From a virus, in IMG/VR virus record IMGVR_UViG_2718218475_000005, positions 5,418 to 69,417 of that record: a stretch of 64,000 bases of DNA; one strand, given 5' to 3'. Within the stretch, counting starts at the first letter, position 1. Each line of letters begins with the position of its first letter. The position numbers were made by a program, and so were the translations under genes. The notes under the pieces are model-generated. The model made no database searches. It saw only the letters and a list, made by a program, of their open reading frames with translations, and was not told the DNA's origin. This document shows positions 10,001 through 49,055 of this stretch, one piece after another.

Positions 10001-12901
10001 AGTTGGGATTAAATTAGTAATCGTGTATTTGGCCAATGGTAACAGGATATTTTGATATCCCCAATCCAGGCCGTCCCATACATCTTTGACTACTGGTCTA
10101 ATCGCTTTTAGCAATCCATCAATCGATTGTAGTAAGGGTGTGAAATTAAGCTTAGAAGCCCACTTAACGGTTGCTCCTGTCATGTCGTTTAACGCACCCA
10201 AAATGTCATTAACCATACCGAGCAGCGTTTTAAAAATAGATGTACCAACGCCGCCATGTTGCCAAGCCTTGTCAAATTGGCCGCCAAGTGCACTAACAGT
10301 ATTAAAGATGTTTGTGAATATCTTGTAGAGATTTGATGCAATTTTCTCACCCGCACCACTATTCCAAGCATTACGAAATGCTACTGCAATATTATTAAGC
10401 ACTTTTACTACAGCGTTCAATGCATTTAAAATTGATTGAATAAGCTTGGTACCAGTGTTGCCATGATTCCATGCATTATCAAACGCCTTAGCGATATCAC
10501 CAATCAGCCCGACTAAATTTGTCACCAACGTAATGAGATTGGCAAAAATCCGTTCGCCCAGATTGCCGCCATTCCATGCACTACGGAATGAAGTGGCAAT
10601 ATCGTGGATCAGTTTCAATACATTATTCAGCGAATTGAAAATAGTTTGGACTAGCTTAGTACCACGACCGCCGCCACCTTCCCATGCTTGTGAGAACGCT
10701 TTGGCAATATCACCAATAATGTTAAGCATGTCTGCTAACAGCTGTAAGATAGCTTCTACTGTCTTCTGACCAGTACCGTTGTCCCATACATGCATAAACG
10801 ATCGTCCAACATCGCTGAGCGCTCGTTCAACCTCTTTCCAAGCATACTTAGCAGCATCCACTACTGAGTTACCCTTGGCGTCCCAAGCTGCCTTCATTGG
10901 GTCGAACAGCTCACCTAAAATTTTTTGCAGTTTTTTAGCTGCATCAGTTGCGCTGTTGAATGGCTGACCTAATGGTACGCCGAAATTGACACCATCATCA
11001 CCAGCTCCAGCATCAGTACCATCCGTCGATTGCAGTGGCGTACTTTCCGGTGCGTTTTGTGTTGGCGTTGAATCTGGTGCCGTTTGTGTTTCCTGCGGAG
11101 TAAAAGTCTCCTTTGGCTTTTTATCATAAGAGTAGTCTTCATCATCATTGCTCTTATCAAGAACATTCAGTTCATCAAAGCCCATCAAAGATTGCATGAG
11201 CTCTTTATTCTTTTTCTTGGTTGCTTCCATTGAGGCCTGGGACCGTTTATTTGCAGCCTCAATTGCTGCATTAGCAGCACGAACTTTGGCTGCACCTTGC
11301 TTATTAGACTCCGCAATTTGTCGATTTGCTTCACGAACTGAGGCTGCTTGAGCTTGATTTTGAGCGCGTATTTGTGCATTAGCCTCACGAACCGACTTTG
11401 CCTGGGCAGCGTTTTGTTTTCGAATCTCTTCGTTAGCCTTCTTAACAGAAGCAGAAGCTTTACTAGAAGCTGAGGCCGTGTCATTCAGTGCCTTAGACTG
11501 CTCATAAAGGCCCTGCGCACCTTGTCGAGCTTTGGAGTAACTCATACCCGTTAGTGCTGACGTGAACTGTGCCAACCATGATGTGGCTTTAGATAATGAT
11601 GACATTAACGCATTCACGGCCGGAAGAACAAAGTTATAAATCGGATAGAATGCTGTCAGTAAATTGACCTTGATTTGATTCAGACTACTTGCAAACTGCG
11701 CGTTCGTCTTAAATGCTGTCATCATCCCAGTAGCAAGTTGCGTCAAGCCTTGGTACAGCAACCCAAATACGATTAATTGTGATGGGAGGTACTTCAACTG
11801 CTGGGCAATGCCGCCCAGGGCCCCACTGGTCCGTCTAGCACTAGAAGAGGCTTTGTTCATTGAAGAACTACTACTATTTCCAAAATTGCGTATCCGACTT
11901 GTTGCACTTTGAATACCGTTGCTAATGCGACTGAACCAATTAGAAGGCCCCTTACCGGAACCTGATCCTTTATTCATTGCGCTACTTGCCGCACTGCCGA
12001 AACGATTATACGAACCTGCCGCTCGTGTAGCAGCCGTCCCGGATTCACCCATCTCAGTATTGAGCTTACCAATTACAGATTTAAGTTCGTCACCACGATC
12101 AGAAACATAAGCATAGCTCTTGTTCAGACTATCATTGGAATTAATGAGCTTGTTCATCTTATCGCGTGTGCTCATGATGCTCTTTTCAAGTGCCGTGCTT
12201 TGCTTGGTCAGCCGGTCGCTGGCACCCATCGTCTTCATAGAATCCTGAACATCACGATAGGAGCCCTGCAACGCCTTCAACTGACGCCGATAGGTTTCAA
12301 TTTTAACTTCGTTTTGATCCATAGCTTTAGAAATCTGCCGCAGTGAGTCCGGCACCGCTTTAAATTCTTGTCGCATTGATTGGGCTAGAGCTTTAGCTTG
12401 GTTTTGATAACGCGTCATCTGAGCTTGAGCGGACGCAACCTGATTATCAATTTTAATTCCTTGCGTCCCATTCTGTTGAGCGGTATTCAAGGACGTTTTT
12501 TGATTCATTAAGTCACGCATCTTGGCTTGAGCAGCTCGGGCCTGATCCATCTTTGCATTGATATCACTCAGCATGGCCTGTAAGTCCTGTTTTACCTTAA
12601 CCCGGCTACCGGTAAACATCTTGCCAGCATTCTGGTTGACCTTGCTAGCCCCGGTAGATGTCGAGCTACTCATTCGTTCGAATGCAGTTTTGATAGTCTC
12701 GTTCAAACCGGACAACTGGTCTTGCAACTTTTGAACACCTTTAGAAACATCCATCGACTGCTCGGTCTTGTCCATACCGGACTTCGCACTATCAGCGGTC
12801 TTCCCCATCAATTTATCAATCATCGGTTGAACCTTGGCAAATTGTTGTTCCATTTGTTCAGTGTTCACTTTGAATAGCAGTTCAATTTCTTCAAGTTCCA
12901 C
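7070..12901 (-). CDS. Tape measure protein A with C-terminal lytic-transglycosylase-like domain
   Basis: 1943 aa, Ala/Gly/Trp helical repeats, FATGG/FANGG motifs, AKSETG...AGGPLQY motif. Confidence 0.93.
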   Translation of the reverse strand: MELEEIELLFKVNTEQMEQQFAKVQPMIDKLMGKTADSAKSGMDKTEQSMDVSKGVQKLQDQLSGLNETIKTAFERMSSSTSTGASKVNQNAGKMFTGSRVKVKQDLQAMLSDINAKMDQARAAQAKMRDLMNQKTSLNTAQQNGTQGIKIDNQVASAQAQMTRYQNQAKALAQSMRQEFKAVPDSLRQISKAMDQNEVKIETYRRQLKALQGSYRDVQDSMKTMGASDRLTKQSTALEKSIMSTRDKMNKLINSNDSLNKSYAYVSDRGDELKSVIGKLNTEMGESGTAATRAAGSYNRFGSAASSAMNKGSGSGKGPSNWFSRISNGIQSATSRIRNFGNSSSSSMNKASSSARRTSGALGGIAQQLKYLPSQLIVFGLLYQGLTQLATGMMTAFKTNAQFASSLNQIKVNLLTAFYPIYNFVLPAVNALMSSLSKATSWLAQFTSALTGMSYSKARQGAQGLYEQSKALNDTASASSKASASVKKANEEIRKQNAAQAKSVREANAQIRAQNQAQAASVREANRQIAESNKQGAAKVRAANAAIEAANKRSQASMEATKKKNKELMQSLMGFDELNVLDKSNDDEDYSYDKKPKETFTPQETQTAPDSTPTQNAPESTPLQSTDGTDAGAGDDGVNFGVPLGQPFNSATDAAKKLQKILGELFDPMKAAWDAKGNSVVDAAKYAWKEVERALSDVGRSFMHVWDNGTGQKTVEAILQLLADMLNIIGDIAKAFSQAWEGGGGRGTKLVQTIFNSLNNVLKLIHDIATSFRSAWNGGNLGERIFANLITLVTNLVGLIGDIAKAFDNAWNHGNTGTKLIQSILNALNAVVKVLNNIAVAFRNAWNSGAGEKIASNLYKIFTNIFNTVSALGGQFDKAWQHGGVGTSIFKTLLGMVNDILGALNDMTGATVKWASKLNFTPLLQSIDGLLKAIRPVVKDVWDGLDWGYQNILLPLAKYTITNLIPTFFDALAAALKLLHRIIQASQPAFKWIWDSFLEPLAKWTGGVIVGMLKKLADALGGISSWVDKHHTAVEAMAKVLVTMFAFKVTMTGLSNGIGLLGKLADKAATIGGKGHVLRDFFKGITGIDKLEEAVGNVKTLWSLAKMKWSDYATALADGWKALKSWSVWSKLAAVGQAALNVVMDANPVALVVLAIAALVAGFVALYKHNKKFRDFCNSVWKNITKWFGDSIDWISKNWTKIIGFIINPVGTIASWFLKDTKTGKNILKWASKLPGKASDWAKSVGKKVGTHITNAKKDFQQAGKNIGNWTTGFVGGAKRTVNTWASNIGSGVHKKVSDGKKAAQEAGKKIGNWTSEFTSKSKGAIVGIRKWASNIGSNVNTKVEDGKRLAKNAGSKLGSWVNNFRTGASKTVSSWAGSLGSKTSSGMGSSRTAALRAGTQLGNWVASFRTGTGKTIAKWAGGLGGKIGGGLSSGWKSVKKGSADVANAIIGTIGKAVNGVIDGIKWILNHVGASSKAKSLSHWSVPSFATGGRHKGGPAIVNDQVGDKYREAYKLPNGRTGLFPAVRNMMVNLPRGTQILNAAQTARKVTAMVPHYAGGIGDFDFDFSSIGNFNLPSFNFSMPNFGDLFSGIGDSVGSFADGVKDTASDIWDDVTHPEKVLKAAMNKFVKFTGLGGYPLDVAKSMVDFSVDSAKSWVGKILKEYGESEGPNGGAITHSMISRALEMTKVPKSRWSKMQHDIIEVAKSETGNRNIMQTITDVNSLAGNPAGGPLQYVKSTFDAFSFPGHHNFRSSFDQVLAYLNNSDYYNAAGHTVIWGTPKFDWLHSGPIGHRRFANGGLVDTHQMIEVAEQNKPEMVLPLTNIPRSMQLIKQALSFMGQTFSDGLQMPAALTQSMDMSSLASQPSNTSTQSMNSGGINELGTSIVNAIVQGLQMTNVGGSMNNQPINVNLTLQVGDEKFGNAAIKGINAVNQKNGKNMLRL

Positions 12902-17472: not shown

Positions 17473-18150
17473 CTATTTTGTCGCCCATAAACTGGACTTT
17501 GCTGGCTTTTGCGAGTTATTTAATTTTTCAGCTGCTGTTGCACCTTCAGATTTATTTGCGGATGTATCAGCACCCGGCAATGTGGTCCCACTGCTTGCGA
17601 TTCGCTTATCGATTGCTTGCTGTAAGCTCTCTGTAAATGACTTACTGATTGCAGTGTAAGCCGCCTCCACGCCTTTATCATCTGCTAAAACATCATCACC
17701 AAAAGCCGCAATCAGCGCTGTCGGCAAATCGTCTGCACCCAGTCGGGCCGTAACTTTAGCTTTATTTTCAACAATAGTTCCATGGCGCTGTGATTCAGCA
17801 AGTTGCTTGGTTAATTGGTCTTTATCATAGTTAGCCTTTTCCAAGTCAGTCATCTTGTCGTAATCTTTTTGCTGCTGGGCTTCACTAGCCTGTTTTTCAT
17901 CATGTGTTTTAATTGCCGAAGCAATCAGCTTATCAACACTTGATTGCCAGTCCTTTTCACTAGCAAACGATTTAAACGGCGTATCTGCCTGATTGTCTTG
18001 GTCAGAGTCGTCATTGTTGCTATTTTGATTGGCGTCGGTTGTGTTAGGCGTGCTATCAGCCGTCTGATTGCCACCTTCATCCCCGCCAGTTCCATTATCA
18101 CCGTCAGCAAACATCTGTAAATTCATCTTTAGTTTGAGTAGCTTTTTCAT
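17473..18150 (-). CDS. Capsid scaffolding protein (DUF4355-like)
   Basis: KMNLQMFAD N-terminus, acidic linker, MTDLEK. Confidence 0.85.
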   Translation of the reverse strand: MKKLLKLKMNLQMFADGDNGTGGDEGGNQTADSTPNTTDANQNSNNDDSDQDNQADTPFKSFASEKDWQSSVDKLIASAIKTHDEKQASEAQQQKDYDKMTDLEKANYDKDQLTKQLAESQRHGTIVENKAKVTARLGADDLPTALIAAFGDDVLADDKGVEAAYTAISKSFTESLQQAIDKRIASSGTTLPGADTSANKSEGATAAEKLNNSQKPAKSSLWATK

Positions 18151-18322: not shown

Positions 18323-18529
18323 CTAATCCTGATGGAACATTGTCGAAAGGATCATCGTGGCGGTTTGTATTGCTGTTACTTGATCATATCCTTTATTAAG
18401 TGCTTCTTCATAACATGTTAGAAATGCATCCGTCATGAGCTTAAAGCCTTGCTTCGTGTCATCATCAAACGTCAAGCCCTTCATTGCCATCTCGGTGTAA
18501 CGCATTAAATCCGAATTATCTTTACTCAT
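18323..18529 (-). CDS. Hypothetical protein
   Basis: 68 aa, GAGGAG RBS. Confidence 0.7.
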   Translation of the reverse strand: MSKDNSDLMRYTEMAMKGLTFDDDTKQGFKLMTDAFLTCYEEALNKGYDQVTAIQTATMILSTMFHQD

Positions 18530-18580
18530 CGTGTTCTCCTCGTCGTACTAAAAAACGCCCAATCAAAATGATTGAACGCC

Positions 18581-18859
18581 CTACATTGCAACAATAACGA
18601 TATCTTGCCATTGGTCACGGATTTTCTTGCCATCAATTACATAATCAAGAATCTCATCAACGTCGTCAGTATCTTTGAAGTGATAATCAAAATCACCATT
18701 ATCTTTAGAAATGATACGTTTGCCCTCACTGTCAAAGCCAATGTACCACTCAACATCATTGATTTTGATTTGAACCTCCATACGAACATCTAACGCAAAT
18801 CGAAGTTGCTCCAAAGACTCTAAGTGATCCGAATCAGCTTTTACTCGTCTTACCACCAT
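18581..18859 (-). CDS. Putative immunity protein of the MuF toxin
   Basis: 92-aa acidic ORF overlapping the toxin 3' end, followed by a terminator-like hairpin (18549-18581). Confidence 0.6.
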   Translation of the reverse strand: MVVRRVKADSDHLESLEQLRFALDVRMEVQIKINDVEWYIGFDSEGKRIISKDNGDFDYHFKDTDDVDEILDYVIDGKKIRDQWQDIVIVAM

Positions 18860-20519
18860 CTTTATTCACAATCCTTTCTGCAATCGTTAATTTCCGCCCA
18901 GGTTCTTCACGCCGGGGAACAATCTTGCCATTTTTCTTTGTAACGCGTAACCAGGGATGCGCGTGTGGCACAATCGTGTGCATTTTAGCATTACCATGGT
19001 CGGTAAAATCAATGTCCAGCCGGGCCTTTCCTGTCTTACCATAATATCTTCGTGTAACTAGTTGTCCATCGACATAACGGTCAAAAACTGAGTTGGCTTC
19101 CTGTTGATACGGAACACCGTGCACTTCACCAAAATTGTGTACATTGTTCAACGCAAATTGTTCGCGCCGAACCTCGCGCGCTACTTTCAACAGGTTCTGA
19201 TAACTATCACTGTCATTATACTTCATCGTTTGAAAATCTTCGAATGTTTCGGGTACGTTATCTCCACCTAAAATCCGTTTGTATTCATCATACTGGGTAG
19301 TATCATACCGACGATTGCCAACCCGATTATCTAAACTATCGAAAGCCTGCGGACCATGCTTTAAGATTACTGCCTGGCGCCAATCTTGATAAGTAGCATC
19401 AGGCTTCAACTTAAGTTTTTCGCCAGTAATTGGATCATTTGCCGTCCGTGGTAGCATGTACTTGCTATCTGACAAATAGATGATCGCAACAGTTCGGCAA
19501 AACGGATGCAACGGTGGAAAATTTACGTTTACTTCTGCTTCATTCACATTAAATATTCGCCCATCAATATTTCGACAAATCTTTGACGTTCGCATATCTA
19601 GCACAGCAACCAGTTGGTACGTTTTAACACCACGTCTTTTCCATTCATTGAGCTTCGTTTGATTATGAAAGTAGTTGGCTTCTGTTCTAATCAATCGTCG
19701 TGTATTGTAGCTGCTAGCTCCAAACTCCTTAGCTAAAGCTTGTACCATGTCACGCTCACGCATACCACTCATCTGCTGAGCCGTGAATAGTTCACTGAGT
19801 CGGTCGGCTAGTTGGTCCGTGTTATGCCAAATCCGTTTAGAGTAGTTCTTGCCTTTAAACGGCGCATCTAATGTAGCCTTAACGTACTTCCCTGACAACT
19901 CTTTAAACCGTGTTATTGGTTCGTCTGGGTTCACTTTAACTGTTACCATCTCTTTACCCGTTTTAGGGTCAAAGATAGTTCTAGTGTGCATTTTAGGCTG
20001 ACTATCAGCGCTCACGCCCGGAAGAATGACGTCTTTATCAAAGCCACCTATAATACTCTCGTTAGTTGCCTGATCAAGTGCTTCTTGAATTACCTTGGTA
20101 TAAAGGTCCGTGGACTTCTCAATCTCAACAGATGCCGCTTGTTTCACCGCAATGTAGCTCTTAGCCTTGAGCTCTTCCAATCTGGTAATACGGCCCTTAG
20201 CTGCCATCCGTGATAGATAGTTGGTAACCTGCTTCTTCGACTCTTTATCATTGATATTATCAGCCAGAGCCCGCAACGTTACTAGTTCAGTCGGACTGAC
20301 TTTCGTGTTAAGAATTTGCTGCGCCTCGGACCCCGTCGTTTTACCATCTGTAAAATATCTTTTATATATCTGTGATACCTCACCAGTCAAATAGTTCTGA
20401 GCACGCATGTACGCCCTCGCAATGATAGTCGCTTGTTTGGTTGCAGCATCATGTGATTTCTGTTCGCTCTGAACGGCTCGCAGTTGCCAGTAACTTAACT
20501 TGCGTTTGTCATCCGCCAC
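18834..20519 (-). CDS. Long MuF (SPP1 gp7-like) minor capsid protein with C-terminal putative RNase toxin domain
   Basis: RLIRTE...C...NFPPLHPFCR MuF core, then ~110-aa tail RRYYGKTGKARLDIDFTDHGNAKMHTIVPHAHPW resembling polymorphic toxin type 24. Confidence 0.75.
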   Translation of the reverse strand: MADDKRKLSYWQLRAVQSEQKSHDAATKQATIIARAYMRAQNYLTGEVSQIYKRYFTDGKTTGSEAQQILNTKVSPTELVTLRALADNINDKESKKQVTNYLSRMAAKGRITRLEELKAKSYIAVKQAASVEIEKSTDLYTKVIQEALDQATNESIIGGFDKDVILPGVSADSQPKMHTRTIFDPKTGKEMVTVKVNPDEPITRFKELSGKYVKATLDAPFKGKNYSKRIWHNTDQLADRLSELFTAQQMSGMRERDMVQALAKEFGASSYNTRRLIRTEANYFHNQTKLNEWKRRGVKTYQLVAVLDMRTSKICRNIDGRIFNVNEAEVNVNFPPLHPFCRTVAIIYLSDSKYMLPRTANDPITGEKLKLKPDATYQDWRQAVILKHGPQAFDSLDNRVGNRRYDTTQYDEYKRILGGDNVPETFEDFQTMKYNDSDSYQNLLKVAREVRREQFALNNVHNFGEVHGVPYQQEANSVFDRYVDGQLVTRRYYGKTGKARLDIDFTDHGNAKMHTIVPHAHPWLRVTKKNGKIVPRREEPGRKLTIAERIVNKDGGKTSKS

Positions 20520-20665: not shown

Positions 20666-20962
20666 TTAATTGCCCTTCACCACCACTTGCAAATTCTGAG
20701 GATATTGTGCTGAAATATCTTGTAGTCCGTGTAATAAGGTCTCACACAGAACTTTGTTATCAGCACTGGGCTCAATCAATCCAATAAACAAGCCACCATT
20801 TTCTTTAATAGTGGCGTTAGATAGCTCATTAGTGATGGCTTGACCAAGCACCGAAACAGCAGCACAAACTAGGTCATGGCCCTTAATAGCACTATTCGCG
20901 TGGCCCGTTATCTGATAACTCACTACCTGCTTTTTGTTTAAATGAAACGTTGCCAGAATCAT
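20666..20962 (-). CDS. prp: Prp-family (ribosomal L27-processing) cysteine protease
   Basis: GHA...GHDLVCAAVS catalytic motif; GAGGAGGT RBS inside portal 3' end. Confidence 0.88.
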   Translation of the reverse strand: MILATFHLNKKQVVSYQITGHANSAIKGHDLVCAAVSVLGQAITNELSNATIKENGGLFIGLIEPSADNKVLCETLLHGLQDISAQYPQNLQVVVKGN

Positions 20963-22400
20963 CCGCAGTTACCTCCTCGTTATCTGTGGCGGGCTCGCCG
21001 CCCATAGCTTTCTGCTGTAGCTTGAGTGATTTTTCCTTTTCCTGATCCAGCATCTTAATCAACTCTTGCGGGTCATTGGTCCCAGGCAACCACCCGAGTG
21101 ATACCAATTGCGGAATGACACCTTCAGCATTCTTGATATTGCTAATGACATCCGCCATGTTGACTGGAATATCAGGAACAATATTAATTGTCGCTCCGGA
21201 GGCATCTACTGACTGGCCTTTAAACGCTAAAATGTTCTGCATCAGTTGTAGACGCTGACGAATTCCACATGTTAAGTATCGCTGCTTAGTCGCTAACAAT
21301 TGGAGTAAACCGAACAGCTTGTATTTCATAGCTTCACCGCTAATCGTCCCTGCAAAGTTTTCGTCATTCATGTTAGGGACGTAAGACGTTTGATGAATGT
21401 CATCCTTAATCGACTTAACAAGTACTTGTAGCTGTGATTCGTCAAAGCTCTTGGTCAACCATTCAACGCTAGCACCCTGGTCGCCTTTACCAGGCGCTTC
21501 TAGAATACCGTCCTTCAAGTTAGCTCCTTCACCGTCCTCGCCCTCATCTAGGGTAAAGCCATAGACTACCAGCAAGGCATCCACGAAGTTCTTTTTATCG
21601 GTGATACGGTCTGACTGTAATTCGTTATAGGCGTTGATTAGGCTAATCGTTTGCTCAAAATCACCTTGACGCTCTTCGTTATTACGATACTCAATAAGTG
21701 GGACACCATTAAAATAATGTTGAATGGCCTTAGGTTTGCTTGCCAAATTAGCATCTGATAGCACTCGTCCTGTCTTGGTTCGATACTGAATAATCCAGTG
21801 GGCCGTATAGACAGTAATCAAATAACCCTTAGCATTACCAAGCAGGTCCTTCTTTTCCACGTAGTAAATACCAAACAGCGGATTTTTATCTAACGTGTCA
21901 TCCGTTACCAGCACACAGCCGCGCGGATCAATTTTTTCAATTGCCAACTCGGTAGTTGCGTCTGACACCTTTTTGATGTATAGCAGCTCATAGGCACACC
22001 CAAACACGCTTAAATCTTTCTCCATCTCCGTATTATGCGAATCAATATCCATTTGGTCCTGAGCATCCGTAATGGCTTTAATATCCTTACCGTTCGTCGG
22101 TGAAATGGATACCGGATTACCAGTTGTAAAGCCGGTAATCATGTCAGTAATGTATTTGGCGTGGTTCGTCATTACCTTTTCATCTGCACGATCCAACTTA
22201 GCCGCCATCTCAAGATTTCGGCTTAAGATGTGCTGATTACCCTCATAGTAGTGTTCCAACATGTTATAACGGTCAATACGTTGCTGTTGTTGATTGATAG
22301 CATAGTTAATTACATCAAAGCTAGGGTTTTCAATATTGCCAGCCAATTCACGGTCAATCGCAACGTTGGACCCGCGCTTCTTGTTCAAATCATACTGCAT
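20892..22400 (-). CDS. Portal protein A (SPP1 gp6-like)
   Basis: YYEGNQHI, NHAKYITD, EYRNNEERQGDFE, SGEAMKYKLFGL motifs. Confidence 0.93.
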   Translation of the reverse strand: MQYDLNKKRGSNVAIDRELAGNIENPSFDVINYAINQQQQRIDRYNMLEHYYEGNQHILSRNLEMAAKLDRADEKVMTNHAKYITDMITGFTTGNPVSISPTNGKDIKAITDAQDQMDIDSHNTEMEKDLSVFGCAYELLYIKKVSDATTELAIEKIDPRGCVLVTDDTLDKNPLFGIYYVEKKDLLGNAKGYLITVYTAHWIIQYRTKTGRVLSDANLASKPKAIQHYFNGVPLIEYRNNEERQGDFEQTISLINAYNELQSDRITDKKNFVDALLVVYGFTLDEGEDGEGANLKDGILEAPGKGDQGASVEWLTKSFDESQLQVLVKSIKDDIHQTSYVPNMNDENFAGTISGEAMKYKLFGLLQLLATKQRYLTCGIRQRLQLMQNILAFKGQSVDASGATINIVPDIPVNMADVISNIKNAEGVIPQLVSLGWLPGTNDPQELIKMLDQEKEKSLKLQQKAMGGEPATDNEEVTADDSGNVSFKQKAGSELSDNGPRE

Positions 22401-22411
22401 CCGCTCACCTC

Positions 22412-23650
22412 CTATCCTCTTAATCCCTTTGGCTTCTTAATTGTCCGTGCCTTGAGCCGTTCGTGTGTGTTATAGACGGCATACCGTAACGCGTCCATTA
22501 CGTCATCGTTAAGCTTGACGGGTAAGCCCGTAGCCTCATCCCAGACATACTGATAGATTTCATCTAAGAAGGCATCAATCGCTTCTTTGATAACAAAAAA
22601 GTGGCCTTGCTTCATGCACTTAGCCACCGACTCGATTCCTGATAAAACCGATTTTTTAGCATTGAACGCCTTGAGCCCTTCACGTTGGAAGCGTGCAACG
22701 TGTTCGGGTCTCGCGCTATCAGCCCAAAACTTAACATTTCGGCCATAGCGATGCTGAATATCTTTTGCAATCTCTACCCAGTAATCAATCTCTTCAAACT
22801 GACGTGTATGTTCTTCAATCAAATAAGTATTGCCAACTCGATCATCAGCCATTACAACAATCGTTCCTTTATGTTCATAGCCCCAGTCGACTCCCGCATA
22901 GTAAGTTAAGTCTGCTGGCAATTGAGCCCGTGGAATAATCATTTCGTCCTTATTAAAATCTTTATACACCATACCTTCACCAGATACCCATAGACCGAGT
23001 ATTGCACGGTCGTAAAACACTCCGGACGGCGTACCCGCTTTTTGATGTTCAACGTATTGTGGGGGCAAAAAGGTATTATCATCGATTGTAAAATGGAAAC
23101 TAACGGTTCCTGCTTTAGGATCATCGTTATCAATATAGCTGGCTTTCAAGTAGTGAGTCGGAACGTCTGGGTTCGTATCGCAAATAATTCGCGCACCTTG
23201 TGCTGAGCACCGATTAAGGATTTCATTGAATACCTCTTCATTAGCAAGGCTAGCTTCGTTAATATACGCCCCAAACGAGGTCATCCCACGAATGGCACCC
23301 AGCCCTGCAATAGACCCGGTAAACGTCTGCACAATTTTCACGCCAAACAGTGTGAAAGAGTTATGTTTGTCAAATTGAAAGTTAATGTCATATTTATTCG
23401 TCAGTTCCTGTAATACGTTGTTTTGTAGCGACTTGCTTGAATACCCCGCTAAAATGTACATTGGTTCCTTGACCCCTAATTTGTCAGCAACCTGACGAAC
23501 ACGCCGCAGTTCCATCAAGAAGGCGTCATTATCAACGACAGTTTTACCAGACCGAACAGCACCATAGTTTATCAGTAGTCGCCAGTCCGTCCGCCGCAAG
23601 GTTTTCAGCACTTGAACTTGTTTCGGCGTATATAGCTCACTAATTGCCAT
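22412..23650 (-). CDS. terL: Terminase large subunit A (PBSX-type)
   Basis: GAVRSGKT Walker A, DTNPD, DWGY, DDVMDALRYA. Confidence 0.95.
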   Translation of the reverse strand: MAISELYTPKQVQVLKTLRRTDWRLLINYGAVRSGKTVVDNDAFLMELRRVRQVADKLGVKEPMYILAGYSSKSLQNNVLQELTNKYDINFQFDKHNSFTLFGVKIVQTFTGSIAGLGAIRGMTSFGAYINEASLANEEVFNEILNRCSAQGARIICDTNPDVPTHYLKASYIDNDDPKAGTVSFHFTIDDNTFLPPQYVEHQKAGTPSGVFYDRAILGLWVSGEGMVYKDFNKDEMIIPRAQLPADLTYYAGVDWGYEHKGTIVVMADDRVGNTYLIEEHTRQFEEIDYWVEIAKDIQHRYGRNVKFWADSARPEHVARFQREGLKAFNAKKSVLSGIESVAKCMKQGHFFVIKEAIDAFLDEIYQYVWDEATGLPVKLNDDVMDALRYAVYNTHERLKARTIKKPKGLRG

Positions 23651-24167
23651 CGCTATCACCACCTAGGACGTCATCCAATTTATCCAGATATTCAGAAACT
23701 TTTGCTTCAGTACTATCGGTTGAGGCATTCATAATGCGAGCTTTAGCCTCCGCAATATCCGCGTCAGCCTCAGCTTTTCGAATTTGAGCTTTGACCAGCT
23801 TATCATCGCCCGGATACCGCTTAAGTATCTCCTTAACAGCACTTATCCGGGTCTTCAAGTCTGCCTCCTTCTGGCTCTCGTATACGCCTTCCGGGGTGCT
23901 CGATATAACCGTTTCTTTCTCTTCCCCTCTCGCTATCCGGGTAAGCAATTCGACGGCCTCTTTGGCGTCCATAATGCGTTTGGAAGCTATCTCGGCCATT
24001 CGCTCATCGATGTAAGATTTAATTCCAACATTTTCCAACAATTTGCTAGATTGTGCCTTTGCATAGTTGCGCGAATAACCAGCTTCAATAGCAGCTTGAT
24101 AAGCATTTCCAGACTTGATATACTCATCGGCAAACTTTTGCTGTTTGGGCGTTAACTTTCGTGCCAT
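23640..24167 (-). CDS. terS: Terminase small subunit A
   Basis: LTPKQQKFADEYIKSGNA..AAI.AGYS; start placed at ATG 24167. Confidence 0.93.
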   Translation of the reverse strand: MARKLTPKQQKFADEYIKSGNAYQAAIEAGYSRNYAKAQSSKLLENVGIKSYIDERMAEIASKRIMDAKEAVELLTRIARGEEKETVISSTPEGVYESQKEADLKTRISAVKEILKRYPGDDKLVKAQIRKAEADADIAEAKARIMNASTDSTEAKVSEYLDKLDDVLGGDSDGN

Positions 24168-24208
24168 TACATACCACCACACCTCCGTCTAATTGATATT
24201 TTCAGCGT

Positions 24209-24376
24209 CTAACGCTTGAGTAAGATGTCCTTAACCAATAGCCACGTTTCAGGTAAAGCCTTGACGTTTCTGCCCGTAACAATGGTACTAACTCGGCCTC
24301 CATCATAATATCCAACATCTTTATAATTGATTGGCTTTAAATAATTAATACCTCGTTGTCGTCTCATTCCCCGCAT
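24209..24376 (-). CDS. Small hypothetical protein (55 aa)
   Basis: ATG 24376 after GAGGTG; shorter than ORF-track call. Confidence 0.45.
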   Translation of the reverse strand: MRGMRRQRGINYLKPINYKDVGYYDGGRVSTIVTGRNVKALPETWLLVKDILLKR

Positions 24377-24524
24377 GTTGCACCTCATTATTTTTATCCA
24401 AACGAAAAGCGCCATGCTGTTTAGCACGACGCTTCTTATCCTTGTACCACCTATCTAGCCGAGCATCAGCCTGCACCCATTCAGGCGGCTCGTACCCATA
24501 TTTGCTGTGAATCATTACTGCCAT
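24345..24524 (-). CDS. Small pre-terS protein (59 aa, MAVMIHSKYGYEPPEW...KKRRAKQHGAFRLDKN...)
   Basis: AGGAGT RBS; C-terminal block identical to ORF 49306-49467. Confidence 0.65.
   Translation of the reverse strand: MAVMIHSKYGYEPPEWVQADARLDRWYKDKKRRAKQHGAFRLDKNNEVQHAGNETTTRY
24388..24439. repeat. 52-bp direct repeat, copy 1 (copy 2 at 49337-49388)
   Basis: ttatttttatccaaacgaaaagcgccatgctgtttagcacgacgcttcttat identical at both sites. Confidence 0.95.
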
Positions 24525-24551
24525 GACACCACTCCTAAATTTACGTAAAAT

Positions 24552-24572
24552 AAAAACGTCCCAAGGGACGTT
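24552..24572 (-). terminator. Intrinsic terminator, homologous to 49495-49516
   Basis: aacgtccc-ttg-ggacgtt then T-run on minus strand, followed by taaatttaggagtg linker. Confidence 0.7.
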
Positions 24573-24633
24573 GATTTCTATTTAACATTATTTCTCAAAA
24601 AAGAAACTATTCTCGAATTTTACCAATATAAAG

Positions 24634-24888
24634 TTAAACATTAGTGATATAAATTACATTACCCTCGACTTGTACCTCATACATAAAATCCTTTTTAGCA
24701 GAATAATACATATATCCGCTAATTCCCTTTTTACCTGTTTCTATTGCATCATTTTCCATATAATCTCGCATATGTTCAGACATAAACTCTTGATCTGAAC
24801 TAGCATCGACCCATTTCGGCAAGGTAACAACCGCCTGATAAATAACATTACAATTCTTGAATACTGTAAATTCAGTTCCTGTACCCAA
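24634..24888 (-). CDS. Hypothetical protein (start uncertain)
   Basis: 84-aa TTG ORF with no clear RBS; frame open ~20 more codons upstream. Confidence 0.4.
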   Translation of the reverse strand: MGTGTEFTVFKNCNVIYQAVVTLPKWVDASSDQEFMSEHMRDYMENDAIETGKKGISGYMYYSAKKDFMYEVQVEGNVIYITNV

Positions 24889-24931
24889 AGAAGCGTTATC
24901 GTCTAATTTATAGGTAACAGTATTATTTGCT

Positions 24932-24979
24932 TCTATGACAGTAGTTTAACAGGGACTGTACCAGAACCGTACCAGAATA
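24932..24979 (-). promoter_or_regulatory. Candidate late promoter of module A: two TTCTGGTAC boxes 11 bp apart + extended -10 TGtTAAACT
   Basis: gtaccagaa at 24958 and 24969 (+); -10 region aligns 12/17 with 50681-50697; integrase arm site is an alternative reading. Confidence 0.45.
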
Positions 24980-25113
24980 CAGTTAAAATAAATTTTTATT
25001 ATATTGCCGGTGCTTCAAATTAACAGGCTTACGCTTGTTTAGGTAAAAAAAGAACATAGCCAGTGTAAATTATGATCTATTGATATTACACTAACAAAAT
25101 TAAACTTGCTAAT

Positions 25114-25162
25114 AAAAAAAAAGTATGAGAAGATAATCTTGTCAAGGAATTATCTCTCATAC
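25114..25162 (-). terminator. Terminator after mazF
   Basis: gtatgagagataat / attatcttctcatac stem followed by T-run on minus strand. Confidence 0.75.
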
Positions 25163-25198
25163 ATATGCTAAGCGATATTCAAATGGATATCGCTTTTT

Positions 25199-25576
25199 TT
25201 ATTGCTGAAATGTCTCGTTAATCATAGTTTGCACCTTTTTTAAAATATCCGGTGGACACATTTCAATAAATTCGGGATTACGCTTACTCAAGTCAAGCGT
25301 TAATAAATGCTCCGTTAAAACACAACCCCTGGTAGTAGTGCGACTATCTAAAGGCAAGTGTAAGGGGAAGTTCTTAGTATTAGTCGTAATGGGTACCACG
25401 TGTACTAATCTGCTTACTTTCTCAAAATCTGAGATAGATAGCACTAGTACTGGTCGTCGTCCATCCTGCTCATGCCCCCTCACTGGACCTAAATCTGCCC
25501 AAATAATCGCTCCACGTTCGAAATTTTTTTCCAATTCAAACACCTGATTCCATTTATTTTTTTGCCCAAACATCAA
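25199..25576 (-). CDS. mazF: MazF/PemK-family endoribonuclease toxin (true start probably TTG 25534)
   Basis: RGAIIWADLGPVRGHEQDGRRPVLVLS...VVPITT PemK signature. Confidence 0.93.
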   Translation of the reverse strand: MMFGQKNKWNQVFELEKNFERGAIIWADLGPVRGHEQDGRRPVLVLSISDFEKVSRLVHVVPITTNTKNFPLHLPLDSRTTTRGCVLTEHLLTLDLSKRNPEFIEMCPPDILKKVQTMINETFQQ

Positions 25577-25611
25577 TAAATCCCAACATGTTTGGGCAAG
25601 TGTTTTTTTGG

Positions 25612-25893
25612 TTAAAAAATTTCATTTCCTACTGGGTCACCCCAGTCAAATTCAGCTTGATCCTGACTAGCCAAATAATCATGTACATCGAACCCTGCAA
25701 ACCGTTGCATCAATCGTGACTCTTCCTTTTGTGGTGAAATCAAAATCTTGCCATCCTCTACAGAGATTTGAACTGGCGTATTAATTGGGTTAACAATTCC
25801 AATCTCTTTGAGGATTGACTTTTTTAGTCTGATTCCTTGCGAGTTGCCTAATTTAACAATCTTTGCGGATAACAACATAATAATCCACCCCAT
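25612..25893 (-). CDS. mazE: MazE/AbrB-family antitoxin
   Basis: KIVKLGNSQGIRL AbrB motif, C-terminal DWGDPVGNEI; lies upstream of the toxin. Confidence 0.92.
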   Translation of the reverse strand: MGWIIMLLSAKIVKLGNSQGIRLKKSILKEIGIVNPINTPVQISVEDGKILISPQKEESRLMQRFAGFDVHDYLASQDQAEFDWGDPVGNEIF

Positions 25894-25987
25894 TCTAAAA
25901 CTTTATTGTTGAAAAGCATATAAACGACTTAATTTTCACCTTCACAGACATAATGTATTCCTCCTAGACAATAATTGATACAAAATT

Positions 25988-26017
25988 AGTATACACCCCC
26001 TGTATACATTATGTCAA
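25988..26017 (-). promoter_or_regulatory. mazEF promoter TTGACA-18-TATACT with overlapping GTATAC palindromes (autorepression operator)
   Basis: -35 at 26012-26017, -10 at 25988-25993; gtatac at 25989-25994 and 26002-26007. Confidence 0.75.
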
Positions 26018-26041
26018 AAAGTCTTATCCTATATCTAAATA

Positions 26042-26081
26042 AAAATCCCACACCGGCCAATTAAGGCTAGTGTGGGATTTT
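26042..26081 (-). terminator. Hairpin/terminator insulating mazEF from upstream transcription
   Basis: aaaatcccacac...gtgtgggatttt perfect 12-bp stem. Confidence 0.7.
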
Positions 26082-26185
26082 ATAAATGGCTTTACATTTT
26101 TTACTAAAGGGCAAAGTGTTAACATTGCATCTACTTGCTTCATTTTTCCGGTTCTACATCTTTTCACCTTTTTTGTAAACCTGTC

Positions 26186-26215
26186 AAAAAATCCCCCACG
26201 CCGAAACGCAGGGGA
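26186..26215 (-). terminator. Terminator of lysis cassette B
   Basis: tcccctgcg-tttcgg-cgtggggga then TTTTTT. Confidence 0.8.
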
Positions 26216-26288
26216 AGTGTTGTAGAGTGATCAAGCTCAACAACAAATGAAACTCTATATCAAGTTATAGCCAATAATTATTATAGCA

Positions 26289-26663
26289 CTATTTTGACGC
26301 TTGTGAGGCGGATTCTGACGCCGCTTCAGTGTCAGATGATGCAGAACTCACTACATCAACTGTGGACGTTGGTGTTTGCGCTTCGTCAGCAACCTTATTA
26401 GCTGTTGCTTCGACTTGGCTTTTTTCGTCATTCGTTACATTAGTTGGTGCCGACACAGTTTGAACATCGGTCACAACACCGAGCATACCAAGAATCGTTA
26501 ATACGGTATTCGCGACTGCGACAATGGCTGACCAATCACCGGTGAACTTAATGCCAAACATGGCTAAGACTTGTTGGATCAAAACGATTAACAATGAAAT
26601 AATCCCAGCAATTAACTTACCGTTCAAACTTCCGTCAGCATTCTTAAAACTAATTTTTTTCAT
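26289..26663 (-). CDS. Holin
   Basis: Start at ATG 26663 (MKKISFKNADG); two TM segments, acidic Ser/Ala tail. Confidence 0.85.
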   Translation of the reverse strand: MKKISFKNADGSLNGKLIAGIISLLIVLIQQVLAMFGIKFTGDWSAIVAVANTVLTILGMLGVVTDVQTVSAPTNVTNDEKSQVEATANKVADEAQTPTSTVDVVSSASSDTEAASESASQASK

Positions 26664-26946
26664 TTCCTTTGGCTTCCTTTTCATATAGGTGTTTAAATTC
26701 AATGTCATGACCATCTAACCGACCTTCTACCTTAATGACCCGATTTTCAATCGCGTTCATTGTGTCGGCATTTTGCTGTCTCACTTTTAAACTTTCATCG
26801 GTAAAACGGCTAAGGCGCTTACCTAAATCGTTAAGCGGGATACGGACCGTCTTATTGAGAATCCAATTAGCCAGTACGCAAATGCTAGTGACAATGGCAA
26901 CAATGGATCCCCATTCATCCCAACCTAATCCTAATAGTGTATGCAA
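26650..26946 (-). CDS. Holin-like membrane protein
   Basis: N-terminal TM segment (WGSIVAIVTSICVLANWIL) + coiled coil, directly after lysin. Confidence 0.7.
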   Translation of the reverse strand: MHTLLGLGWDEWGSIVAIVTSICVLANWILNKTVRIPLNDLGKRLSRFTDESLKVRQQNADTMNAIENRVIKVEGRLDGHDIEFKHLYEKEAKGNEKN

Positions 26947-28110
26947 TTACCGCACCACCAATCGCTGGCCAGGATAGATAGTGGTGTAAATCGTCTTGCC
27001 GTTCTGGCTAGCTAATGTAGTCATACTTAGGCCGTTGTGCTGAGCGATTGACCACCAGCTGTCGCCAGACTTGACTGTGTAATACGTGTGAGAAGCACCG
27101 GTTTTGACGTACTCCAGTGAATTATTTGCTGGACCAGTTGCTAGATAGCCATATCCACTAAATCGTGGCTGGCGTACCCAGCGATACCCACCCTGAATAA
27201 TGGCTTGATCAGTCTTGACCGTAGTCCCGGCTGGCAGGATAGTGATGGCTATTGATGACGTCGACGCGCCAGTGCGTAGCTTAACCGCCGTCTTGAGCGT
27301 GTAGGTCTTTTTTTCCTTGACCCACTTGGCTGCCGCAGATGGCTTGGAAGTGTGTTTGTTGGCTGCCTGGTTGTTGGCCTTAACTGCATCCTTATCAGTC
27401 GGTTTGACCGTTGATTTCTGACCAGCTGTGTAGTAATTAGTATAAAGTTGACTGACATCAAAACCACCGTAACTAATCCGAAAATGGGCAGAACCCGACC
27501 ATTGCCAGGCATTGTTATTCGTATACCATTGCTTGCCAGCTGGCACAAACGGATATCCAGCAACCCAACCCGTTTTGCCCTTGATGGTCATCTTATTGTT
27601 AGCCCATGACCCAGACGTGTAAATGTCGGCTCGATAACCAAACTTCTGAATCTCTTGCATGAAGGCCACATTATTGCGGTCATTGGTCGCTTTGGACAAG
27701 TTGCCTTGCTCTTCGGCCTCCACGTCCGTTGCCAGTACTGCGCCCACCGGTAGACCGGCCGCTTTAGCCGTTTGACCGGCAAAGTCAGCTTCAGCAATCG
27801 CTTGTGCCTTAGTCGTATAATGCGCAAAGTGGTAGCCGTTGACGTATAAGCCAGCCGCTTGACCATTAGCGATATTACTAGCAGCGTAGCCATCTTTGAA
27901 GGTTGTGCCTTCACTAATCTTGACGGTGAGGGCCTTAACACCAAACTCGTTACGCATCGAAACATACTCCGCCGTTGACATGTAGCCGTTGTTATTCGAC
28001 ACATCGACCATATCCATACGAGCAGCCTGACTGGTAACATTGACCATTAAAAAGGCCATAAAAATAGCCCCCACCATTAAGATGAGCGCCTTTAGCTTAC
28101 TTTTATTCAC
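26947..28110 (-). CDS. Endolysin B (signal peptide, GH25, SH3-like, LysM)
   Basis: DVSNNNG, GYHFAH, DVE, WQW; YTVKSGDSWWSIA LysM. Confidence 0.95.
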   Translation of the reverse strand: MNKSKLKALILMVGAIFMAFLMVNVTSQAARMDMVDVSNNNGYMSTAEYVSMRNEFGVKALTVKISEGTTFKDGYAASNIANGQAAGLYVNGYHFAHYTTKAQAIAEADFAGQTAKAAGLPVGAVLATDVEAEEQGNLSKATNDRNNVAFMQEIQKFGYRADIYTSGSWANNKMTIKGKTGWVAGYPFVPAGKQWYTNNNAWQWSGSAHFRISYGGFDVSQLYTNYYTAGQKSTVKPTDKDAVKANNQAANKHTSKPSAAAKWVKEKKTYTLKTAVKLRTGASTSSIAITILPAGTTVKTDQAIIQGGYRWVRQPRFSGYGYLATGPANNSLEYVKTGASHTYYTVKSGDSWWSIAQHNGLSMTTLASQNGKTIYTTIYPGQRLVVR

Positions 28111-44532: not shown

Positions 44533-45444
44533 CTAATCCAATCCATAATTCTTTGGCATTTGACTAAAATCAACACTGTAATCATTATCAGCGACTTCAA
44601 TAATTGTGCACTGACAATTAGGATGAAATGGTGGCAGTGTCACCCCTTCACTAGCTTCATCAATATTATATTCTGTTCCGTCCAGCGCCTCACATTCCTC
44701 GCACGTCGTTACTGACAGAGCTGCTTCAATTTGATAACGTTTGACGCTTCGTTGACCAAAATCATCAATTAATTGCCTTGACAGTTCGCCGCTTGATTCA
44801 GTTCTAAGAATGCGTTCTGCACGTCCTTCCGACGCACCAAGCTTAGTTGCAATCTCTTTGCTGAAATCCTGCGGCTTATAGTGATTCTTCAATACATCGT
44901 CTACTTGATCGTCTAACTGACGCATTAACGCAGACTTCTCTTTATAGATTCGATCCTGCCAAGAAGCTCCCTGCCAACCCTGATGATTATCACCCACAAT
45001 TTTTTGCACCGCTATGTCTGACTTATGCCTTGAATACACAGCACGATCCGGTTGCGGATTTACTAGTGGTGCCCGGTCAATATGATTTAGATTACTTTGG
45101 ATAACTTGTTTTTGATCTATAGCCAGCTGGGTAACGATTAGGTTAACTCGCTGCTTAGCCACATCACCATAAGTCTTAACTCGTTCATCTCTAAATGTTT
45201 GATTAACAAACGGGCGTTCATCAATAGCGGCAGACACGGCTAATTTGGCGATGTCGTCCATCAGCTCCTGTATTTGGGCTTTGGGGGCTGGAGCTGACCA
45301 ATTAACCTCATCAGCAATAAAGGTGCTTAGAACGTCCACAATTTCGTTATTAGCGTGTTTAAATAATTCATTCAATTTTTTTACACGTTTGTCGTTCTCA
45401 CCATAAACACGTTGTGCCAGTTGCAGAACAGCCTTTCGTTCCAT
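44533..45444 (-). CDS. Short MuF minor capsid protein (no toxin extension)
   Basis: RILRTE...TCEEC...LPPFHPNCQC then ends. Confidence 0.88.
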   Translation of the reverse strand: MERKAVLQLAQRVYGENDKRVKKLNELFKHANNEIVDVLSTFIADEVNWSAPAPKAQIQELMDDIAKLAVSAAIDERPFVNQTFRDERVKTYGDVAKQRVNLIVTQLAIDQKQVIQSNLNHIDRAPLVNPQPDRAVYSRHKSDIAVQKIVGDNHQGWQGASWQDRIYKEKSALMRQLDDQVDDVLKNHYKPQDFSKEIATKLGASEGRAERILRTESSGELSRQLIDDFGQRSVKRYQIEAALSVTTCEECEALDGTEYNIDEASEGVTLPPFHPNCQCTIIEVADNDYSVDFSQMPKNYGLD

Positions 45445-47194: not shown

Positions 47195-48508
47195 TTAAAT
47201 ACCAAAGTTTCTAAGCGTATTAGCTTGAACAGAATGATTATTAGTTTGGTTTATCCGCGTCATTCTCATCTGTGAAGCAACTGCATACCGCATAGCATCC
47301 ATAACATCATCATTCTGCTTCACAGGTTCGCCAGTCTTCTCGTCCCAAACATATTGATAAACTTCATCTAAGAAATAATGATAACCATCTTGACCGGTAC
47401 TAAACTGACGATTATCAATTGCCTCTTTGGCAACAAAAAAGTGGCTAGCTTTCATCAAACTTGCCACATTCTCTACGCCGGTCAACCGACTTTTATACCC
47501 ATTAATTGCATTGATTCCATGTTCGCTAAATGCTGCAACATGTTCTGGCCGGGCACTATCACAGTAAAATGGAATCCGTTGCCCGTACCATTCCTGAATA
47601 TTTGATGCTATATTCAACCAATAGTCAATTTCACGGAACTGCTGCGTATGCTCCTCAAGTAAATACCAAGTATCATCTTCACTAATGCCAAACACTACAA
47701 TGGAACCCTTATGTTCATATCCCCAATCGACGCCAACAACGTAGCTCAGTCCGCTCGGGATCATATCATTTGAAACAACCATCTTACGCTCGTCAAAATC
47801 ACGATACACGGCACCTTCACCACTAACCCACAGCCCTAATATTGACCGATCGTAAAACATGCCGCTAGGCGTTGTTTCCTTTTTCGTCTGGATATAATCA
47901 TCATCTAAAAAAGTATTATCAGTTAGTACAAAATGATTGCTGATAATACTCTTAGAATGGCCGGGATTATCAATATAATTTCGTTTAAGCCAATGTGTTG
48001 GAATATCAGGGTTAGTATCACAAATAATGCGCTTAGAGCCCTTAGAACAGCGATCACGGATTTCATTAAACACTTCTTCATTGGCAAGACTGGCTTCGTT
48101 AATATATGCTCCCCATGCCGTCATACCACGAATAGCCCCAAGGCCACTAATTGAACCGGTATACGCCTGAACGACCGTGACACCATATAAATTAAAGTTG
48201 CCATAACGGTCAAACTTAAAATCAATGCCGAAATCATTGGCTAATGGATTCAGCACATTATTCCAGATTGTTTTACTAGATACCCCAGCAAGAATATAAA
48301 GAGGATTATCATAACCTTGTTGGCTTGCTAATTTAGCAGTCTGTTTCAATTCATAAAGGAACAGGTAGTTATCAACGATTGTCTTACCAGATCGAACAGC
48401 TCCATAATTAACCATTAATTTCCATTCAGAGTTAAAAAGCCCTTGACGTAGCACTGTCTGCTGTTTGCCAGTTAATATTTGGTTTAGTATGTTTTGCTTT
48501 TTATTCAT
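47195..48508 (-). CDS. terL: Terminase large subunit B (PBSX-type)
   Basis: GAVRSGKT, DTNPD, DWGY, DDVMDAMRYA. Confidence 0.95.
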   Translation of the reverse strand: MNKKQNILNQILTGKQQTVLRQGLFNSEWKLMVNYGAVRSGKTIVDNYLFLYELKQTAKLASQQGYDNPLYILAGVSSKTIWNNVLNPLANDFGIDFKFDRYGNFNLYGVTVVQAYTGSISGLGAIRGMTAWGAYINEASLANEEVFNEIRDRCSKGSKRIICDTNPDIPTHWLKRNYIDNPGHSKSIISNHFVLTDNTFLDDDYIQTKKETTPSGMFYDRSILGLWVSGEGAVYRDFDERKMVVSNDMIPSGLSYVVGVDWGYEHKGSIVVFGISEDDTWYLLEEHTQQFREIDYWLNIASNIQEWYGQRIPFYCDSARPEHVAAFSEHGINAINGYKSRLTGVENVASLMKASHFFVAKEAIDNRQFSTGQDGYHYFLDEVYQYVWDEKTGEPVKQNDDVMDAMRYAVASQMRMTRINQTNNHSVQANTLRNFGI

Positions 48509-49016: not shown

Positions 49017-49055
49017 TACATACCACCACACCTCCATTTATTGGAATTAATTAGT

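Follow-up and report, generated by a model that had tools for sequence, protein, structure and literature searches.

Why does one of the two MuF head proteins encoded in a single provirus carry a long C-terminal extension, with a small acidic gene overlapping its end? The question arises in an 84-kilobase (kb) provirus record of IMG/VR (IMGVR_UViG_2718218475_000005), of which we analyzed a stretch of 64,000 nucleotides (nt), positions 5,418 to 69,417 (hereafter, the window). Proteins of the window have their nearest relatives in Lactiplantibacillus plantarum and Levilactobacillus, and the two complete head–tail gene sets found there, modules A and B, have every structural gene on the minus strand (Table 1). 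Pfam Phage_Mu_F is matched exactly twice in the whole record, by the proteins we call MuF-A and MuF-B after their modules. An initial annotation of this DNA had identified MuF-A as a polymorphic toxin accompanied by an immunity gene, both absent from module B. That identity is borne out by the architecture of the protein and by the conserved linkage of the two genes across unrelated carriers, and sequence comparison gives good support to the locus being a real, well-formed MuF polymorphic toxin–immunity cassette with an Ntox24-like domain.

The C-terminal module of MuF-A

The domain architecture and family relationships of MuF-A are plain. The protein matches the phrog_115 minor head protein (E 2.5e-102), and its score for PF04233 is 57.6 bits against a cut-off of 29.6. 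The motif LHPFCRT of MuF-A aligns with FHPNCQC of MuF-B, which ends 25 amino acids (aa) further on, close to where the initial annotation had placed its stop; the scaffold gene of module B comes directly next, with no minus-strand open reading frame (ORF) of at least 30 aa in between. About 215 aa of MuF-A extend past the MuF core. These had at first been described as a single C-terminal domain of ~110 aa with a four-histidine motif: the motif is present and conserved family-wide, but the extension consists of two parts, a linker of ~95 aa and a toxin module of ~120 aa. The linker can be aligned to the MuF protein of Clostridioides phage phiCDKH02 and is 28–43% identical to relatives; in five of the six pairs compared, the toxin module is the more similar part. 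Against Levilactobacillus acidifarinae, identity reaches 75% in the toxin module versus 40–54% in the rest of MuF.

The last ~120 aa of MuF-A include DIDFTDHGNAKMHTIVPHAHPW, with the motif DIDFTDHG..MH..VPHAHPW. Conservation was measured in two alignments (A1 and A2) of 96 and 110 homologs, in which all, or at least 90%, of the sequences keep R491, G497, D502, D504, H508, G509, H514, P518, H519 and H521; the conserved histidine/aspartate stretch is the putative catalytic site. In a library-wide phmmer search, 383 proteins matched aa 440–561 at E ≤ 1e-3, and in nearly all of the 150 matches listed the domain lies at the C-terminus or a few residues from it. What precedes it varies widely: among 96 full-length homologs the N-terminal parts include Phage_Mu_F (27), Phage_min_cap2 (4), LXG (2), PT-HINT (2), DUF637, Hint_2 and others, and the carriers at genomic loci further include RHS-repeat proteins of >1,000 aa, DUF4417 proteins and many stand-alone genes of 100–150 aa. 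In Paenibacillus larvae phages (Fernvirus; for example, Tadhana gp25, NC_048691), a domain 42% identical over the core closes a 676-aa protein annotated as a 'toxin', right behind a PT-TG pre-toxin domain, and is followed by a gene for a 73-aa partner belonging to the family of the gene downstream of MuF-A; unlike MuF-A, this carrier is no head protein and is encoded beside lysis/lysogeny genes. A C-terminal position behind such varied carriers is what defines a C-terminal cassette of polymorphic toxins.

An AlphaFold2 (AF2) model of the module, based on the 110-sequence alignment, has one helix followed by six strands (predicted local distance difference test (pLDDT) 91.4, predicted template modeling score (pTM) 0.84). 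Foldseek aligned the model to six AFDB clusters that bear the name 'Bacterial toxin 24 domain-containing protein' (template modeling (TM) score 0.44–0.58, E 3.9e-6 to 1e-3) and an AFDB filamentous-haemagglutinin C-terminus. The Atlas clusters that it matched carry Phage_min_cap2, Phage_Mu_F, LXG, PT-HINT/Ntox24, DUF4417 and viral DUF7211, and one matched Atlas cluster is 26% Ntox24; in all of these fold comparisons, predicted structures stand on both sides. Searches of the PDB with the sequence and profile of the module gave no meaningful match, the best Foldseek hit of the model there had an E value of 0.11, and VIA-align over 48,161 chains reached a best Z of 4.2, to OspA/OspB-type sheets and within the range of noise. 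The absence of a PDB fold match does not prove the toxin fold new.

Ntox24 (PF15529) is the sole Pfam toxin family matched by the isolated domain (15.8 bits, E 0.017). Two relatives, P0046 and P0122, score 23.6 and 23.7 bits, and 55 of the 110 toxin-domain homologs match the family at E ≤ 0.1 (best 1.3e-6), compared with at most three for any other family. The initial annotation had noted a likeness to toxin type 24; the hidden Markov model search, the homologs and the folds all favor that family, with the score of the domain itself falling short of the 24-bit cut-off. Because intermediate sequences and fold matches support the relationship despite the sub-threshold score, we read the toxin module as a divergent clade of the Ntox24 superfamily, and not as a member by Pfam threshold.

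Ntox24 was described by Zhang et al. 2012 (PMC3482391) as an all-beta domain with conserved Y, H and H in their table, carried by proteins of type II, type V and type VII (WXG, LXG) secretion systems (T2SS, T5SS and T7SS) and by MuF proteins. The same paper names Imm50 and Imm53 as its immunity proteins, reports Ntox24 also in apparent type II toxin–antitoxin (TA) pairs with an uncharacterized antitoxin family, and suggests that it is a metal-independent endoribonuclease. Since Ntox24 on MuF carriers was catalogued there, the architecture of MuF-A was already known. In a Pseudomonas paper on contact-dependent inhibition, PF15529 is labelled 'Toxin_49', in a table only and without functional data. 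The module of MuF-A has in common with Ntox24 a mostly beta C-terminal toxin domain, perhaps with equivalent conserved tyrosine and histidine, fold matches to AFDB Ntox24 entries, a carrier range that takes in T5SS/filamentous haemagglutinin, T7SS LXG/WXG, RHS, HINT and MuF proteins, and stand-alone, TA-like versions. It differs in that its clade keeps four histidines and two aspartates (DxDxTDHG...H...PHxH), whereas the text of PMC3482391 describes one histidine; in its sub-threshold score; and in its partner, which is neither Imm50 nor Imm53 and is without a Pfam match. The consensus RRYY and H508, H514, H519 and H521, kept in the clade, are candidate counterparts of the Y, H and H in the table of PMC3482391. 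Given the four conserved histidines and two aspartates, a metal-dependent mechanism is possible for this clade.

The partner gene and its linkage to the toxin module

The gene that follows MuF-A encodes a 92-aa protein, and both its overlap with the MuF-A gene and its acidity were correctly described in the initial annotation; the overlap is 26 nt and the isoelectric point (pI) 4.50. The charges of the two products are complementary, with a pI of 10.09 for the toxin module. The 92-aa protein matches phrog_3711 (E 6e-23), and searches of Pfam and the PDB matched no family and no chain. It is homologous to the ORF downstream of the phiCDKH02 MuF toxin (E 8e-10) and, more weakly, to ORFs downstream of a Paenibacillus PT-TG toxin and of one LXG toxin; BLASTP against the ORF downstream of a second LXG toxin gave no alignment. 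Five partners align on a common pattern, W/Y-I ... I-[DEN]GK-x-[IL]-x-[DE]-x-W-x-x-I, and profile–profile comparison of Lactobacillaceae partners with LXG/PT-TG partners gave a probability of 84% (E 7.6e-6). An AF2 model of the 92-aa protein from nine close sequences (pLDDT 64) was too poor for a fold search, a feature search of the Atlas returned unnamed clusters only, and 30 diverse partners gave no PDB match.

Linkage was assessed at 80 genomic loci with the toxin domain, by a jackhmmer search from the 92-aa protein, run to convergence, against 2,075 six-frame ORFs of at least 45 aa; it yielded 79 matches. Of the 73 loci that have a downstream ORF, 70 encode a homolog of the 92-aa protein in it, so that the linkage of toxin and partner across unrelated carriers is near-obligatory. 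Of the remaining seven, four are placed at or across the toxin gene's end, with start calls that differ, and one (L055) falls within the toxin ORF itself. In this Paenibacillus algorifonticola locus (L055:2746-3453), the toxin ORF is 235 aa long, 100 aa of it beyond the toxin match, and the immunity profile matches within; it could be a toxin–immunity fusion or reflect a lost stop codon. The 79 partners have a median pI of 4.48 and a median length of 81 aa.

A profile of MuF-A's own core matches only 8 of the 80 loci, Phage_min_cap2 and similar MuF-like families being missed by it. Most genomic copies consist of a stand-alone toxin gene of 100–150 aa and then a partner ORF of ~246 nt, often with an overlap of a few bases, which gives them a TA-like look; such stand-alone pairs (many loci among L020–L088) occur in Lachnospiraceae, Clostridia, Erysipelotrichaceae, Saccharibacteria, Treponema and a metagenome-assembled genome of Neisseriaceae. 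A pairing that is independent of the carrier points to a specific relationship of toxin and neutralizer and not to a role in phage assembly. On these comparisons, the 92-aa protein appears to belong to a widespread immunity family without a Pfam entry, which is a modest addition of the present work.

A second, equally modest addition is a strain that by its sequence appears to be naturally 'immunity-only'. At a contig end of L. plantarum EGD-AQ4 (L010:2984-3734), 753 nt correspond to window positions 19175-18423 with 93.8% identity. Homology sets in abruptly at 19175 (~aa 449, shortly after the toxin module begins), no MuF lies upstream of this point, and the match spans the immunity gene, the hairpin behind it and the start of the next ORF. 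Whereas the 92-aa immunity ORF is intact, the toxin remnant lacks 1 nt after RRYYG and through this frameshift loses the DxD/His region; the cluster representative P0007 is the same frameshifted toxin product. An orphan immunity gene next to a dead toxin suggests, if indirectly, that cells benefit from immunity in trans or are selected for it. The toxin domain occurs in only 3 of the 201 species genomes sampled from the family of L. plantarum EGD-AQ4 (G002), a sparse distribution that suggests mobile, accessory DNA.

The cassette is bounded by a hairpin that abuts the immunity stop codon. A 66-nt stretch containing it folds at -19.5 kcal/mol (z -3.5), and none of 200 shuffles was as good. The initial annotation had the cassette closed by a terminator: the hairpin and its U6 tract are real, but a simple terminator scan did not list it and one RNA-library contig bridges it, and we regard it as a terminator-like cassette boundary only. 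Between the hairpin and the scaffold gene lies a 68-aa ORF (18323-18529, minus strand), the part of it down to 18423 falling inside the stretch conserved in EGD-AQ4; its match to phrog_25186 is weak (E 0.003) and fails at E 0.001.

Within the toxin module, ~180 nt upstream of the immunity start, is a candidate internal promoter whose -10 hexamer also survives in the EGD-AQ4 orphan cassette. Promoter-like sites in the region occur at chance level (6 found versus 6.5 expected), which makes this candidate a lead only. RNA-seq library contigs from four studies are nearly identical to the window over module A from 10000 to ~24180, the toxin–immunity stretch included; they show the presence of the element in organisms, and not its transcription, starts, strand or level. 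A contig break near 19092–19121 and differing contig depths (X6) were accordingly left unused as evidence, and the uncovered interval at 27.1–29 kb is meaningless. With the immunity gene in a late operon and the promoter candidate at chance level, caution is called for on a trans-protective role.

Proposed delivery and competing explanations

Taking the sequence together with analogy to known systems, we consider MuF-A probably to be a MuF polymorphic toxin with an Ntox24-like, nucleic-acid-cleaving module and a cognate immunity partner, delivered by the virion. Its toxicity, neutralization by binding, substrate, packaging, ejection and ecological role we infer as follows. The first 346 aa would be a portal-associated minor head protein, joined by the linker to a toxin module that is most likely a nucleic-acid-cleaving enzyme, and by published prediction a ribonuclease. 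The 92-aa protein, presumably co-translated with the toxin in the late operon, most likely neutralizes it by direct binding, so that virion assembly can finish in the producing cell. Through portal binding, MuF would bring the toxin into the procapsid; if SPP1 gp7 is a guide, each capsid would hold a small number of MuF-A copies, to be released together with the DNA. On infection, the toxin would reach the new cell unaccompanied by the immunity protein and cleave nucleic acid there.

MuF toxins were defined by Jamet et al. 2017 (PMC5576092), who found 89% of them followed by an ORF of <150 aa. Like these toxins and Apk2 (PMC12226406), MuF-A has an N-terminal MuF domain, is encoded in the head/packaging module of a Firmicutes provirus, ends in a toxin domain common to other polymorphic toxin families and has a small ORF (92 aa) directly downstream. 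Its domain is Ntox24-like, whereas those named as experimentally studied in the literature consulted are an ADP-ribosyltransferase (EFV) and a (p)ppApp synthetase (Apk2). The accessible part of the supplementary text of PMC5576092 has no occurrence of Ntox24, PF15529 or 'plantarum'. SPP1 gp7 and other short MuF proteins, MuF-B included, share the MuF core and the place after the portal gene but are without C-terminal extension and partner gene.

Several points weigh against virion delivery of an Ntox24-like toxin from this locus. The Ntox24 match lies under the gathering score (15.8 bits for the domain and 12.7 for the whole protein versus 24), and the literature searched holds no experimental work, activity or structure for the family. 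No solved structure resembles the toxin model, which leaves its chemistry a guess. At E ≤ 0.1, a search with 30 diverse partners brought up neither Imm50 nor Imm53, the immunity families reported for Ntox24. As late as 2025, delivery by virions was described as hypothetical for every MuF toxin, and in this record no early genes lie directly upstream of module A, which leaves particle production by this copy in doubt.

Who would benefit from delivery is a separate matter, for which Jamet et al. 2017 (PMC5576092) offer two models: benefit to the phage (takeover, lysogeny decision) or to the lysogen population (competition). The suggestion in the initial annotation that A particles inject a toxin as a competition weapon, giving a reason to keep module A, corresponds to the second of these, a published and unproven hypothesis. 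Under the first, the injected domain would serve the phage through host takeover, anti-defence or a bias between lysis and lysogeny, and immunity would protect the producer during assembly only. In favor of such a role, the immunity gene belongs to the late operon and promoter-like sites are at chance level, so that uninduced lysogens may not be immune; in addition, only two to three MuF copies are expected per head. MuF-linked effector domains are also reportedly discussed in one paper as injected polyvalent proteins. The toxin–partner pair is nevertheless found in LXG, RHS and CdiA-like interbacterial systems as well, and the orphan intact immunity gene beside a dead toxin suggests selection in trans; we consider a purely phage-serving role a serious alternative, if somewhat unlikely. 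A bolder form of the competition model would have an uncatalogued immunity family paired almost always with a four-histidine Ntox24 clade acting as small metal-dependent nuclease, of a fold without solved relatives, an internal promoter that in Lactobacillaceae provides immunity independently of induction, and lysogens and orphan strains resisting the toxin of the particles. This conjunction is doubtful; if true, it would give the first direct example of an interbacterial toxin that is delivered by virions and countered by immunity in trans.

Two further explanations give the pair another role. The pair might be a TA module of addiction or abortive infection in the carrying cell, stabilizing the prophage or blocking other phages, with the fusion to MuF incidental. 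Most genomic relatives are indeed stand-alone toxin genes of 100–150 aa with a ~81-aa partner, and Zhang et al. 2012 (PMC3482391) note Ntox24 versions in what look like type II TA systems. Here, however, the toxin is in frame with a virion protein in a late structural operon, and fusions of this kind are found again in many lineages of MuF and Phage_min_cap2. The partner departs from the type II pattern in lying downstream of its toxin, which is the usual order for immunity genes, inside that operon, and Pfam recognized no DNA-binding domain in it or in the 30 diverse partners; a TA module is improbable. That the C-terminal module is instead a non-toxic structural, DNA-binding or portal-binding extension, with the small ORF as assembly chaperone or head protein, would agree with its basic charge and with the binding of DNA and portal by MuF proteins, familiar from SPP1 gp7. 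But the same domain and partner stand behind LXG, RHS, PT-HINT, PT-TG and DUF637 carriers, two-gene cassettes occur outside any phage head module, and the conserved His/Asp constellation is typical of an enzyme, which makes this explanation very hard to sustain. A delivered MuF toxin with its own immunity protein is our preferred reading.

Genomic setting and significance

Module A follows the order TerS, TerL, portal, Prp-like protease, MuF, immunity gene, scaffold, capsid (Table 1). In the left flank of the record (L007:3978-5391), downstream of the tail genes, it has a holin (phrog_13404) and an endolysin (phrog_291) of its own, which makes it a complete late region and not a fragment.

Table 1. 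Positions in the window of the MuF-A cassette and of the genes of modules A and B
Feature	Position	Strand	Remarks
MuF-A gene	18834..20519	-	561 aa, GTG start; head protein with C-terminal toxin module
MuF core domain, aa 250-346	19482..19772	-	Pfam Phage_Mu_F (PF04233), E 2.5e-15; ends at LHPFCRT
Linker, aa 347-439	19203..19481	-	common to other MuF-toxin proteins
Ntox24-like toxin module, aa 440-561	18837..19202	-	N-terminal helix and beta core, pI 10.1
Putative active-site stretch	18957..19016	-	D502-x-D504-x-T-D-H508-G ... H514 ... P-H519-x-H521; conserved columns
Candidate internal promoter	19041..19068	-	TGGACA-16-TATTAT, 10/12 matches; in toxin module
Putative cognate immunity gene	18581..18859	-	92 aa, pI 4.50; overlaps MuF-A end by 26 nt
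Terminator-like hairpin	18550..18578	-	10-bp core stem, 3-nt loop, then U6; abuts immunity stop codon
Module A TerS	23640-24182	-	then TerL
Module A portal	20892-22400	-	
Module A Prp-like cysteine protease	20666-20962	-	PF04327, E 1e-19; between portal and MuF-A
Module A scaffold	17473-18150	-	
Module A tape measure	7070-12901	-	
Module A tail protein	1424-6679	-	last listed gene of set
MazE/MazF-like pair	25199-25893		upstream of module A terS; judged from translations
MuF-B	44533..45444	-	303 aa, short form; without toxin extension or small downstream ORF
Module B TerS	48501-49037	-	set runs down to endolysin
Module B endolysin	26947-28110	-	

Upstream of the module A terS gene, positions 24183-26946 hold only small ORFs, the MazE/MazF-like pair and the holins of module B, and no early genes. 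The record encodes an integrase: L008:234-1472 (plus strand) is that of B, and beyond it a second early region (L008:4544-7286) has RecT, exonuclease and DnaD-like genes. Prophage B may lie inside or beside prophage A. RNA-library contigs from three runs/studies leave the window sequence at about 24.2–24.5 kb (24186-24503) and continue into unrelated DNA; this divergence upstream of terS indicates that module A is joined to other DNA in those strains and that the A/B junction is specific to this genome. The loose-end sequences of these contigs (24.2–24.5 kb) had no match in the right flank of the record or in the window.

Two observations concern the Prp-like protease. The N-terminus of the module A scaffold protein is MKKLLKLKMNLQMF/ADGD (the slash marking the presumed cut), which we take to resemble the Prp cleavage motif of L27 and phage 80alpha. 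A possible Prp-type site in MuF-A (QF/A, aa 452–454), the sole such motif in the protein, was rejected as a candidate: it is kept only in the closest relatives and lies within a confidently modelled helix.

As annotation, the locus is ordinary, with a known architecture listed in 2012. MuF toxins are common in Firmicutes prophages and their delivery by virions is, in the literature consulted, still a hypothesis, for which this provirus offers a compact, testable pair (122 aa and 92 aa) in an organism amenable to culture and induction. Nature also supplies two comparisons, the toxin-less MuF-B of the same record and a strain with 'immunity only'. The ~80-aa partner family, found beside the toxin in Bacillota, Saccharibacteria, Treponema and a Neisseriaceae genome, is a candidate for catalogues of immunity proteins.

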